A stretch of DNA of 64,000 bases from Candidatus Binataceae bacterium (GTDB lineage Bacteria > Desulfobacterota > Binatia > Binatales > Binataceae). Below the pieces are notes generated by a model. It saw only the letters and a list, made by a program, of their open reading frames with translations, searched no databases and was not told the origin of the DNA. Of this stretch, positions 29,481 through 34,061 are shown piece by piece; position 1 is the stretch's first letter, and each line of letters begins with the position of its first letter. Both the position numbers and the translations under genes were made by a program. The stretch covers positions 17,218 through 81,217 of the forward strand of contig JBGPUE010000002.1 in assembly GCA_041491005.1 (NCBI GenBank), in the 5' to 3' direction.

Positions 29481-30710
29481 ATGGTGCTTAAGGACAAGCG
29501 AATCCTGGTTGGAGTCAGCGGCGGCATCGCGGCTTACAAGGCGGCCGAACTGATCCGCCAGCTCGTTAGTCGCGGCGCGAACGTCCGCGTCATGATGACG
29601 CGAAACGCGGCCGAATTCATCACACCGCTGACGTTGCAGACGCTCAGCGCCAATCCGGTTGCGAGCGATACCTTCAGCCTCACGCAGGAATCCGAAATCG
29701 GCCACATCCGGCTCGCCGACACCTCCGATGCGATCGTGATTGCACCTGCGACTGCTGACGTGATTGCCAAGGCCGCGGTCGGCATCGCTGACGACATCGT
29801 CACAACTGTGCTGCTCGCGGCGCAATGCCCGATCGCGTTTGCGCCCGCGATGAACGTCCACATGTACGCTCATCCTACGGTCACCGAGAACCTCGCGAAG
29901 CTCGCCGCGCGCGCCGTCACTATCATCGAACCGGGCGAGGGCGCGCTGGCCTGCGGCTACGAGGGCAAGGGCAGGATGGCCGAGCCGGCCGACATCGTCG
30001 AAGAGCTCGAGCGGATGCTCTCCGCGCATGATCTTGCCGGCGAACGCGTACTGGTCACTGCAGGCCCGACTCAGGAAGCGATCGATCCGGTGAGATTCGT
30101 CTCGAATCGTTCGTCGGGCAAGATGGGTTTCGCGATCGCGCGGGCTGCATGGCGCCGTGGCGCCGAGGTCCGCATCGTAGCGGGACCCAGCGCGCTGGCT
30201 ACGCCTCGCGGTGTCGAGCGGATCGATACCGTAAGCGCGGCCGAGATGTTGCGCGCGACGGCAGAGAACTTCCCGTGGTGCACGGTGCTGGTGATGGCGG
30301 CGGCGATTGCCGACTTCCGCCCGGCTCGTCCGTCAGCGCATAAGGTCAAGAAGAATTCGCGCGGGATGAGCCTCGAAATGACCGCGATCGCCGATGAGCT
30401 GCCGCGGCTGGCCGCGCGCAAGGGCAACCGCGTGCTAGTCGGCTTCGCGGCGGAGACCGAAGATCTCGAGCGCAACGCCGCGGACAAGCTGCGCCGCAAG
30501 AAGCTCGATCTGATTGTCGCCAACGACGTGATGGCCGAGGGCGCCGGCTTCGGCGTCGATACCAACATCGTCACTGTGATCGGCGCCGATGGGAGTTCGC
30601 GCAGCCATCCGATGCTGCCCAAGGACGAGGTCGCCGACCTGATCCTCGATCGAGTTGCGACGATGCGCAGCGTCCGCACGAAGGTCCGTGCACTCAGAGC
30701 CGTCCGCTAG
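29481..30710 (+). CDS. coaBC: Bifunctional phosphopantothenoylcysteine decarboxylase / phosphopantothenate-cysteine ligase
   Basis: Flavoprotein N-domain (KRILVGVSGGIAAYKAAELIRQL) and DFP ligase C-domain (VSNRSSGKMG...KKK). The stop overlaps the left direct repeat of the insertion. Confidence 0.9.
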   Translation: MVLKDKRILVGVSGGIAAYKAAELIRQLVSRGANVRVMMTRNAAEFITPLTLQTLSANPVASDTFSLTQESEIGHIRLADTSDAIVIAPATADVIAKAAVGIADDIVTTVLLAAQCPIAFAPAMNVHMYAHPTVTENLAKLAARAVTIIEPGEGALACGYEGKGRMAEPADIVEELERMLSAHDLAGERVLVTAGPTQEAIDPVRFVSNRSSGKMGFAIARAAWRRGAEVRIVAGPSALATPRGVERIDTVSAAEMLRATAENFPWCTVLVMAAAIADFRPARPSAHKVKKNSRGMSLEMTAIADELPRLAARKGNRVLVGFAAETEDLERNAADKLRRKKLDLIVANDVMAEGAGFGVDTNIVTVIGADGSSRSHPMLPKDEVADLILDRVATMRSVRTKVRALRAVR

Positions 30711-30739
30711 GAGCCGCCCCGGCATGAGTTCCGCGCCGC
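30699..30739 (+). repeat. Left copy of a ~41-bp imperfect direct repeat (coaBC stop + UDG start codon region)
   Basis: gccgtccgctaggagccgccccggcatgagttccgcgccgc versus gccgcccgctaggagcgcgtcgcgatgagttccgcgccgc at 33222..33261. Shares gcc-g-ccgctaggagc and atgagttccgcgccgc, i.e. the first 5 codons of the UDG gene. Confidence 0.8.
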
Positions 30740-30857
30740 TCCCCCACGACGAGGAATCGCGAACCCCGCTGAGATGCACGGTCTACTTTTGCCGAAACTG
30801 ATGTCGGGCGAGGTGCGCGTACGCTACGCCGAGCACATGATGGGGGGAGACCGACGG

Positions 30858-33161
30858 ATGATCAACAAGTTGCGGTTGCTTAGGAACATTGGGCAGTTCG
30901 ACTCGGTCGATAGCGCTGCGACCATCGCGTTAAATTGACTCACCCTGATCTACGCAGAGAACGGGAGAGGAAAGACAACCCTCGCTGCCGTGCTCCGGTC
31001 GCTCGGGACCGGCGATCCGATTCCGATCATGGAACGACGCAGACTTGCGGCCCAGCGCGCTCCACACGTCGTCATCGAGTGCGATGGAGGACCGCCGTCT
31101 GCGATGTTCGAGAACGGTGTGTGGAACCGCACGTTACCGAACATGGTCGTGTTTGACGACCTATTTGTTGACCAGAACGTCTACTCGGGTTTGGCGGTCG
31201 GGGCAGAACACCGGCAGAACCTGCACGAGCTCATCCTAGGTGCCCAGGGCGTGACCCTCAACACGAAGCTTCAAGGGTTGGTCGAGCGCGTCGAGGAGCA
31301 TAACGCTGCGTTGAGGAACAAAGCGGCCGCCATACCTCCGGCAGAGCGCGGCGCGCTGTCAGTTGACGAGTTTTGCTTGCTCCCGCCACGGACGGACGTA
31401 GACGAAGCGATACAAGCTACCGAGCGCATGCTAGCGGCGGCGCGCGAACAAGCCCCAGTTCGGAACGCTTCCCTCTTCGACCCGCTGAGCCTTCCGGCTT
31501 TCGATGTCGCGGCCACTGACCGCGTCCTTCAGAAAGACTTGGCCACGCTCGATGCGGCGGCGGCGGCTCGCGTCCAAGCGCATGTGGCAGGACTGGGTCC
31601 AAGCGGTGAAACGTGGATTGCTGAAGGAATGCGCCGTCTCCCGCGGGCGGCTCCAGGCGCGGGAACGGCCATCTGCCCATTCTGCGGGCAGGATCTGGCC
31701 GGCGCGCCCCTTATTGCCCACTACCGGGCCTACTTTAGCGCTGGCTACGCCGACCTTAAGCGTAAGGTTTCGGAGGCTCTTGCAGAGATAAACCGCACGC
31801 ACGGGGCCGATGTGCCAGCGGCGTTTGAACGCTCGATCAGGGTGGCTGTGGAGCGGCGGCAGTTCTGGTCACGGTTCTGCGATGTACCCGACCTCGTCGT
31901 GGATACGGCCACGATTGTGCGCGATTGGCGCGCTGCCCGCGAGGCCGTCATCGCGGCGCTTACCTCGAAGCAGGCAGCGCCGCTGGAGCGCAAGACACTT
32001 GCGGCGGAGGGCCAGGCAGCGGTCGCGTTATACCACACTCATCGCGACAGGATTGCGGCTCTCAGCGGCGCGCTCGTGAAGACAAATGCTTCTATCCGAC
32101 TGGTCAAAGAGCAGGCGGCAGTGGCCAACCCGCAACTCATCGCTTACGATCTCTCTCGCCTCAAGGCGGTCAAGGCCCGCCACAGCCCAGGCATCGCAGC
32201 GCTTTGCGATGGCTATCTGGCGGAGAAGGCCGCCAAGGCGCAAACAGAGCAGCAACGGGACCAAACCCGAGCGGTGTTGGACCAGTACAGAATGAACGTG
32301 TTTCCGGGATACCAGACTGCGGTCAACCTTTATCTACAACGATTCAATGCGGGGTTTCGGCTCGACAGTGTGACTCCCGTCGACACTAGGGGAGGCCCGG
32401 CTTGCACGTACAACTTACTGATCAACGACATACCCATCGCCGTCGCGGGAGCGCCCCCTTCGCCTGGCGAGCCTTCATTCCGCAACACCCTGAGCTCGGG
32501 CGACCGCAATACACTTGCGCTCGCCTTCTTTTTCGCTTCCCTTGACCAAGATCCGGGACTCGCAAACAAAGTCGTTGTGATCGACGACCCGATCTCAAGC
32601 CTTGACGATCATCGCTCGCTAACCACCGTGCAGGAGATACGAGACCTCGCGAAACGCGCCGGCCAGGTCATCCTGCTCTCCCATAGTAAGCCGTTCCTAT
32701 GCCGCACTTGGGAGCGGGTCGATCCTTCGACCCGTACCGCGCTCCAGGTAGCCCGCGACAACCTTGGCTCGACCATTCGCTCCTGGGACGTGGACGAGGA
32801 CTGTATCACTGACCACGATCGGCGCCACGCCACTATGCGCGAGTACCTTGCCAATGGCATGCCGAACAATCGGGAAGTCGCCGGATCAATTCGCCCTCTG
32901 CTGGAAGCGTTTCTTCGCGTAGCTTGCCCGGAGCATTTTCTTCCAGTAACGAAGCTTGGACAATACCATGACCTGTGTAGGCAGCGCGTAGGCACGCCCC
33001 AGCAGATCCTCGATACGAGCGCGACTGCGGAACTAGGCAAACTGATCGAATACCCGAATAGATTTCATCACGACACGAACCAGGCGTGGGAGACCGAGAC
33101 TATCAATGAGACTGAGCTGGCAGGCTTCGTCCGGAGAGCAATGAGTTTCGCCAAACGGTGA
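30858..33161 (+). pseudogene. AAA_13/RloC-like Rad50-type ABC ATPase with CXXC zinc hook, disrupted by an in-frame TGA at 30936..30938 (possible anticodon-nuclease/abortive-infection type module)
   Basis: ATG at 30858 has a strong SD (ggggggag) and encodes MINKLRLLRNIGQFDSVDSAATIALN-TGA-LTLIYAENGRGKTT. This is the typical AAA_13 N-terminus with the stop sitting where a conserved residue (W or K) precedes the P-loop. Downstream: ~450 aa of coiled-coil-like sequence with a central CPFCGQ zinc hook, ABC signature (LSSGDRNTLALAFFFA), Walker B/D-loop (VVVIDDPISSLDD), H-loop (LLSHSKP) and a ~170-aa C-terminal domain. Lower GC3 than the host genes. Confidence 0.6.
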
Positions 33162-33221
33162 GCCCGTGACCAGTGGCCACTTCAGTGAGTCCGACGTGGA
33201 AGACGCCGCCCTAGCATCCGG

Positions 33222-33261
33222 GCCGCCCGCTAGGAGCGCGTCGCGATGAGTTCCGCGCCGC
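33222..33261 (+). repeat. Right copy of the ~41-bp direct repeat
   Basis: See 30699..30739. Here the ATG is the genuine start of the UDG gene. Confidence 0.8.
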
Positions 33262-34061
33262 CGCTGGACCGCAAGATCGTGCTGGCCACGATGCGCGATT
33301 ACGTCGAGCAATTGCGCGAGGAAGGACTCGAAGGGCTGCCCGCGAGCGAAGCTGTAGCGCCCGTCCTCGTGTCGGCCGCGTCCCGCGCTATGCAGCCTCC
33401 TGCTGCGGCGCTCAAAGCTCCGTCAGCAGCTGGCGCGCCCGCGGAGGAGCTCTTTTCGCCGTACCCCGGATTGGAGCAGACTGCGGAACTGGGTGCGTTG
33501 CGCGCCTTTATCGGCGATTGCCAACGATGCAAGCTCGCGCCGACCCGCACGAACCTCGTCTTCGGGATCGGCAATCCGCATGCGGAATTGGTCTTCGTCG
33601 GCGAAGCGCCGGGCGCGGACGAAGATGCGCAAGGCGAACCGTTCGTCGGGCGCGCGGGCCAGCTACTGACCGATATTATCGAGCGCGGCATGGGAGTGAA
33701 GCGCGCTGACGTTTACATCTGCAACGTGATCAAGTGCCGCCCGCCGGGCAATCGCAATCCTGAGCCCGACGAAGTCGCGGCCTGCCAGCCCTTCCTGTTC
33801 CGCCAGATCGATTTGATCAAGCCGCGCGCGATCGTAGGCCTCGGCAGTTTCGCAGTGCAGGCGCTGCTGCGCGTCAAGACGCCGATCGGCAAGTTGCGGG
33901 GCGCCTGGCAGGAGGTGCGCGGTGTCCGCATGATGCCGACCTTTCATCCTGCATACCTGCTGCGCACTCCCGGCGACAAGCGGCTGGTGTGGAGTGATAT
34001 ACAAGAAGTTATGAGGGAACTGGGGTGGCCGATTCCAAAGCGTGGCGGACCGGCGGCATGA
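33246..34061 (+). CDS. Uracil-DNA glycosylase, family 4
   Basis: [23 protein letters not shown] and a downstream HP motif (TFHPAYLLR) are family-4 UDG signatures, 271 aa. Confidence 0.85.

Follow-up and report, generated by a model that had tools for sequence, protein, structure and literature searches.

A C-to-T nonsense mutation at codon 27 most likely inactivates a recently inserted RloC-like gene in a Candidatus Binataceae bacterium

A gene for an RloC-like ABC-ATPase in a 64-kb stretch of DNA (the window) from a Candidatus Binataceae (Binatia) bacterium was found to be interrupted by a TGA at its 27th codon. The TGA is a genuine allele, and judged from the homologues a single C>T transition from an arginine codon (CGA) accounts for it. 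The sequence of events that we propose is that a 2.5-kb slice of a type I restriction-modification (R-M) operon brought this RloC-type ABC-ATPase/anticodon-nuclease gene into the chromosome, and that the nonsense mutation then inactivated it. The locus is probably a pseudogene of recent date; at best it would be an allele whose activity is strongly attenuated.

The reading frame of the AAA_13/RloC-like gene extends on the forward strand from 30858 to 33161 and has 767 codons when the internal stop is counted (Table 1). It begins with the ATG at 30858, 8 nt downstream of a Shine-Dalgarno-like run (GGGGGGAG). Translation from this ATG yields MINKLRLLRNIGQFDSVDSAATIALN, meets the TGA at 30936-30938 and continues as LTLIYAENGRGKTT; the next stop is only the TGA at 33159-33161. 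The initial annotation had reported an internal stop in this frame, placed directly 5' of the P-loop, and both particulars were found as described, with the TGA at codon 27 and the Walker A motif at residues 33-40. The stitched length is the commonest one in the family, found as exactly 767 aa in 57 of the 120 top homologues, and the first 21 residues are identical to those of homologue P0003. Since family homology is present on both sides of the stop and the length is modal, this is one gene with one bad codon and not two chance ORFs, in agreement with the earlier description of a gene that is full length but for one codon. In-frame restart candidates after the stop are the CTG at 30945 and the GTG at 30990, both correctly noted before, and the ATGs at 31029 and 31104. 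Public gene callers start at the ATG at 31104, which gives a 685-aa product (P0001).

Table 1. Coordinates of the RloC-like gene, its motifs and the surrounding features in the window
Feature	Position	Strand	Basis or remark
coaBC (Dfp), left-flank host gene, stop TAG 30708-30710	29481..30710	+	Pfam DFP 1e-67, Flavoprotein 7e-35
Direct repeat, left copy: last coaBC codons, 13-nt spacer, first 16 nt of udg (ATGAGTTCCGCGCCGC)	30694..30739	.	Repeat families D2 and D3
hsdS 3' remnant (..GLLLPKLMSGEVRVRYAE..), in frame with the AAA_13 ORF, roughly 25 codons	30771..30857	+	PADLOC type I specificity-subunit profiles
RloC-like gene, first 26 codons, including strand beta1 of the ABC head	30858..30935	+	Translation; model of homologue P0003, residues 2-8 = strand
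In-frame TGA, codon 27 (ancestral Arg, CGA)	30936..30938	+	Sequence and homologue alignment
RloC-like gene, other 740 codons and natural TGA stop; no further lesion	30939..33161	+	Translation
Walker A/P-loop AENGRGKT, residues 33-40, K39	30954..30977	+	G38 and K39 invariant in 119 homologues
CPFC zinc-hook motif, residues 273-276, tip of the coiled-coil insert	31674..31685	+	C273 and C276 invariant, 119/119 homologues
Walker B VVVIDD, residues 572-577	32571..32588	+	D576 and D577 invariant in 119 homologues
Putative anticodon-nuclease triad region, R679-X3-E683 ... H737/H738	32892..33071	+	Invariant, 119/119 homologues; motif per PMC2610378
hsdR 5' remnant, 17 codons (VTSGHFSESDVEDAALA)	33166..33216	+	Aligned to intact hsdR N-termini
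Direct repeat, right copy: coaBC-tail-like ..AAR*, 12-nt spacer, functional udg start	33217..33261	.	Repeat alignment
Family-4 uracil-DNA glycosylase (udg), right-flank host gene	33246..34061	+	Pfam UDG 7e-37

The protein matched Pfam AAA_13 with 97.8 bits (cutoff 36). Its best PADLOC match was PDC-S06 (profile PDLC04895, E 2.2e-57), to which residues 1-686 aligned over profile positions 1-704 of 784; it is a member by this profile of what is a candidate family only, with a putative function. There was no NCBIfam match above the cutoffs, a PDB sequence search returned marginal Rad50 matches only (E 0.06 or weaker), and the matches of a plasmid search were all distant ones, to genes labelled 'AAA family ATPase' (65-67% DNA identity). 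The AlphaFold model of P0003, which is 78% identical, has a mean pLDDT of 83 and contains a split ABC head, long helices over residues 116-495 and a helical C-terminal domain. The top Foldseek matches, over the head and the coiled coil, were an SMC head (1.4e-8), Rad50 (2.8e-8) and LmuB (4.5e-6). The Rad50/SbcC/SMC-family ABC ATPases and Lamassu LmuB thus share the fold of head plus coiled coil, but they are without the C-terminal nuclease-like domain and their sequence identity is only 9-20%.

The closest resemblance is to RloC, a wobble-nucleotide-excising anticodon nuclease (COG4694; Davidov and Kaufmann, 2008, PMC2610378), and the JGI/COG label on homologues is 'wobble nucleotide-excising tRNase'. 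As in RloC, a Rad50-like ABC-ATPase head is split by a long coiled coil with an invariant, central CXXC zinc hook, and the head carries the Walker A (GRGKT, K39), ABC signature (LSSGD, 545-549), Walker B (VVVIDD) and switch-His (H609) motifs, the signature and H609 also being invariant in the 119 homologues. The size is similar (767 aa here, about 800 aa in RloC) and an invariant R-X3-E ... H set is present in the C-terminal part. The published C-proximal catalytic triad is Arg-X3-Glu-X36-52-His (PMC2610378), whereas the spacing from E683 to the His is 53-54 here, just outside that range, and no match to a PrrC or RloC ACNase C-domain was obtained with the PADLOC profiles. The triad is a candidate one, and tRNA cleavage with excision of the wobble nucleotide is a putative, label-based property. 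Family members are mostly unlinked to R-M genes, as is rloC, which is rarely R-M-linked and has an internal silencing switch (PMC2610378, PMC3458546); the copy studied here, in contrast, stems from an R-M-embedded lineage and contains a nonsense codon. PrrC of the E. coli prr locus was also considered. The closest intact homologues occupy the position of PrrC in a type I R-M operon (hsdM-hsdS-gene-hsdR, found in L008 and L006), with an ATGA overlap of the hsdS end and the start of the AAA_13 gene, and the two proteins have in common an ABC ATPase N-domain and a C-terminal R-X3-E...H motif. PrrC is, however, about 400 aa long and without a coiled-coil/zinc-hook insert, whereas the present protein has a roughly 380-residue helical insert with the CXXC. 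The match to the PADLOC PrrC profile was confined to residues 546-613, in the signature/Walker B stretch (E 8.5e-9), and of hsdM and hsdR only short remnants exist at this locus. The size and the insert imply that the protein is not PrrC, and the gene is best named RloC-like.

A sequencing or assembly error would leave a sense codon at position 27 and an intact gene, an alternative that the initial annotation had raised. The window is metagenome-derived and one base separates its sequence from an intact gene, as such an error would have it. However, the identical TGA was present in all five other public contigs that encode P0001 (JGI 3300053057, JGI 3300052992, NCBI MAG GCA_041483395.1, Logan SRR29604879 and Logan SRR29604911), and the stop site lies outside any homopolymer. 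These contigs differ from the window at 0, 1, 13, 43 and 151 positions, and their flanks by 0-33 differences per kb, the maximum being reached upstream in L002; it follows that they are not copies of one assembly. Their sources comprise at least two samples and three assembly pipelines, and at least three haplotypes can be told apart, although some of the data sets may share raw reads. The recurrence of the same TGA in six sequences across samples, pipelines and haplotypes makes an error very unlikely, so much so that we give it hardly any weight. The search for an intact allele in related strains, as the initial annotation had advised, gave the same answer: besides the five contigs, all with TGA, no intact allele more than 79% identical was found among 5.8 billion clustered proteins, the next best match being at 79%. 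The TGA allele appears to be fixed in the sampled population.

The codon from which the stop arose was sought in the alignment. In the 118 homologues whose N-terminus could be aligned, position 27 is occupied by Arg 107 times, by Pro nine times and by Cys and Leu once each; Trp does not occur. The closest homologues read AAT CGA CTC (L008/L009), AAT CGG CTC (L006/L007) and GCC CGC CTC (L010), and the window AAT TGA CTC. A single nonsense change is thus the best explanation, as had been proposed, but the TGG codon put forward as its origin, and the Trp that was expected at this position, were dropped in favour of CGA>TGA.

A programmed reading of the TGA, as selenocysteine or in an alternative genetic code, could draw on the homologue with Cys at the aligned position. 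The residue of the family is nevertheless Arg, not Cys, and position 27 is structural rather than catalytic. TGA is moreover the regular stop of the neighbourhood: it terminates six of the 11 neighbouring called genes, 24 of the 48 long ORFs in the window and the RloC-like gene itself. No SECIS-like fold was found in the 86 nt around and after the stop (z = 0.42 relative to shuffles), and the 64-kb window contains no tRNA-Sec, its sole tRNA being tRNA-Val. None of the other family copies among 80 related metagenome loci has a stop at codon 27. Their lesions are scattered over unrelated positions, which indicates sporadic decay and no conserved recoding site. Selenocysteine insertion and an alternative code were ruled out on these grounds, as was a recoding site conserved in the family, and programmed recoding retains next to no probability. 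The stop therefore lies in a conserved region, is reproducible across assemblies and is without a recoding signal, as is characteristic of a pseudogene.

In the P0003 model two strands (residues 2-8 and 28-33) flank the stop position and the second runs into the P-loop. Translation from the ATG at 30858 would yield a peptide of 26 residues and break off just one residue short of this second strand. The canonical in-frame restarts (GTG 30990, ATG 31029 and ATG 31104) are all located 3' of the Walker A lysine K39, and re-initiation at any of them would give a protein that lacks it. In Geobacillus kaustophilus RloC (GkaRloC), mutants of Walker A (K44) and Walker B (D572) have no in vivo ACNase activity (Klaiman et al., 2012, PMC3458546). 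As the Walker A lysine of GkaRloC is needed for activation of the nuclease, the gene studied here is most likely null. By analogy with the K44 mutant a P-loop-less protein could not activate the nuclease, and we infer that any restart product would be inert. Loss of function of the gene would accordingly be the most likely consequence of the stop.

An N-terminally truncated protein from the GTG at 30990 or the ATG at 31104 might still function without its P-loop, perhaps as a constitutively active nuclease or together with another ATPase. Possible ribosome binding sequences precede both codons (GGGAGAGGAAAG 14 nt upstream of the GTG and GGAGGA 8 nt upstream of the ATG), and the 685-aa product is the one annotated by the gene callers. 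This is very improbable, as both Walker mutants of GkaRloC were inactive in vivo (PMC3458546), strands of the ABC head core would be removed according to the P0003 model, and none of the 119 homologues starts there, except for one fragment at a contig edge.

More deserving of consideration, yet still unlikely, is an attenuated gene, in which near-cognate tRNA-Trp would read through a leaky stop and only a trickle of active full-length protein would be made, so that a nuclease that may be toxic could be tolerated once its R-M partner had been lost. In E. coli, termination is weak where UGA is followed by C, and this context is reportedly the weakest. The stop in the RloC-like gene is a TGA followed by C, and position 27 tolerates Pro, Cys and Leu in homologues, so that some full-length Trp27 protein could be made by read-through. 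Several haplotypes furthermore share the allele and show no difference anywhere in the cassette, and the remainder of the gene is undamaged. Of 189 near-invariant columns, four show a departure, all conservative (median of the homologues 2, maximum 9). The absence of a second lesion and of excess substitutions would also be expected of a gene still under selection and to that extent counts against a pseudogene; undamaged sequence is equally expected of a very recent lesion. Against attenuation it can be held that no stimulatory structure is present downstream of the stop, that no other family member has a stop at codon 27, the scattered lesions being ordinary decay, and that intact stand-alone copies are common, which means that attenuation is not generally needed. 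A further variant has the TGA act as a throttle: once the RloC-like nuclease had been separated from the type I R-M partner that silenced it, a leaky UGA-C before the P-loop would have been favoured by selection, since less of a self-toxic tRNase would be made while a trickle of active enzyme was kept, and the undamaged, SNP-free cassette would have spread among Binataceae haplotypes by recombination. We regard this as more improbable still than attenuation in general. A young pseudogene remains the preferred reading, and the lack of other decay suggests that its lesion is young.

The surroundings of the gene point to an insertion between two host genes. The CoaBC encoded on its left is 74-82% identical to CoaBC of Binataceae MAGs, and the order coaBC-udg-nfeD is kept in Binataceae relatives. 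The insertion is bracketed by an imperfect direct repeat of 46 bp (84-86% identity, one indel, spacing 2522-2523), between the copies of which lie 2,477 bp of foreign DNA consisting of an hsdS tail, the RloC-like gene and an hsdR head. GC3 is 0.69 in the RloC-like gene, compared with 0.75-0.84 in the flanking host genes. The hsdS remnant matched only the extreme C-terminal ends of S-subunit profiles (for example 383-400 of 406, E 3.6e-7). The hsdR remnant aligned with the N-termini of intact hsdR genes 3' of the homologues, such as MSQSFTESIVEQAALAWLEGVGW and MSRFTESTVEDATLSW, and its assignment is based on this alignment, since the peptide of 17-23 aa is too short for PADLOC, which gave no match. 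Neither hsdM nor hsdR was found in the 64-kb window, and a promoter and terminator scan of the cassette revealed nothing beyond the expectation from shuffles.

At the left junction, a chimeric ORF of 54 aa (30774-30938) is called as a gene in the JGI contigs; in it the hsdS tail continues in frame into the first 26 codons of the RloC-like gene. The run of six Gs at 30840-30845 has probably one G more than the ancestral sequence. With five Gs the hsdS frame would stop at an ATGA overlap, like that of the intact operons. In one R-M-embedded homologue (L006 4386-5596; L007 3908-5118), two further genes, for DUF6978 and DUF1828/DUF1829, are situated between the AAA_13 gene and hsdR as additional restriction-linked ORFs.

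The initial annotation had described the cassette as recently inserted and otherwise undamaged, and this was upheld. At the coaBC-udg site the RloC-like gene was absent from all 80 Binatia relatives, about half of them Binataceae. Between 29808 and 33314 there were zero differences among all haplotypes (the window and L001-L005), whereas up to 33 per kb were counted nearby (L002, upstream of 29481). A segment free of differences is consistent with a recent transfer or sweep across haplotypes. Together with the four departures in 189 columns, it implies that the insertion and the nonsense mutation are both recent.

The gap between coaBC and udg is variable in the relatives (L011-L051, L075 and L087), measuring 51-157 bp if empty and 0.5-5.4 kb otherwise. 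Judged by ORF N-termini alone, the cargo found there resembles genes for a luciferase-like oxidoreductase, a CoA-transferase and a phospholipase-C-like protein. The idea that the site is a hotspot for defence islands was abandoned, because by the same N-termini the other occupants look metabolic and not defensive. The 46-bp repeat is far longer than the usual target duplication of a transposon, and its copies are non-identical although the cassette is SNP-free among the strains. It may be an old att-like duplication, or one copy may have undergone later recombination. The hsdR head ends at the same residue (...EDAALA), before a conserved Trp, in the window and in L010 (about 2490-2545), an unrelated orphan copy with a protein 73% identical, prmA and rsmE downstream and little upstream sequence for comparison of the left edge. 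The common end could mark a breakpoint that recurs or the edge of a cassette that both loci share, and there is a small chance that the slice of hsdS tail, gene and hsdR head is a discrete exchangeable module.

The earlier suggestion that a toxic gene had been killed because it was costly to carry was not supported by the family survey. Roughly 42 of the 56 full-length relatives have no hsdR/hsdM detectable nearby (by tblastn with two references only, many of the stand-alone loci having short flanks), and nearly all of these are intact; in at least 16 of the approximately 42, each of the two flanks measures 2.9 kb or more. Lesions were present in 3/42 stand-alone and 3/14 R-M-linked copies, which are small numbers; they were no more frequent in the former, and an orphan-specific inactivation found no support in this comparison. 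RloC itself is usually unlinked to R-M (PMC2610378). The other lesions in the family are TAG at codon 136 (L096), TAG at codon 469 (L147), TGA near the start of L135 and frameshifts in L122, L134, L138, L152, L153 and L159; some of them may be assembly errors. In the 80 loci, about one in ten metagenomic copies is lesioned, R-M-linked and stand-alone alike, which argues against a simple cost of an orphan toxin. That a dispensable defence gene was lost neutrally is no less likely than that selection acted against its toxicity.

With good probability, then, the locus holds an ordinary pseudogene of recent date, derived from a defence gene of a known kind; the small insertion that carries it is interesting. 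Taken alone this carries little weight, being one more case, from an uncultured lineage, of a point mutation that disables a defence gene. For annotation it means that 30858-33161 should be marked as a pseudogene and that neither the 685-aa CDS nor the 54-aa ORF should be annotated as a gene. The locus is also a clean and dated case in which an RloC-type gene of R-M origin was brought, within a small slice, to a junction of housekeeping genes.
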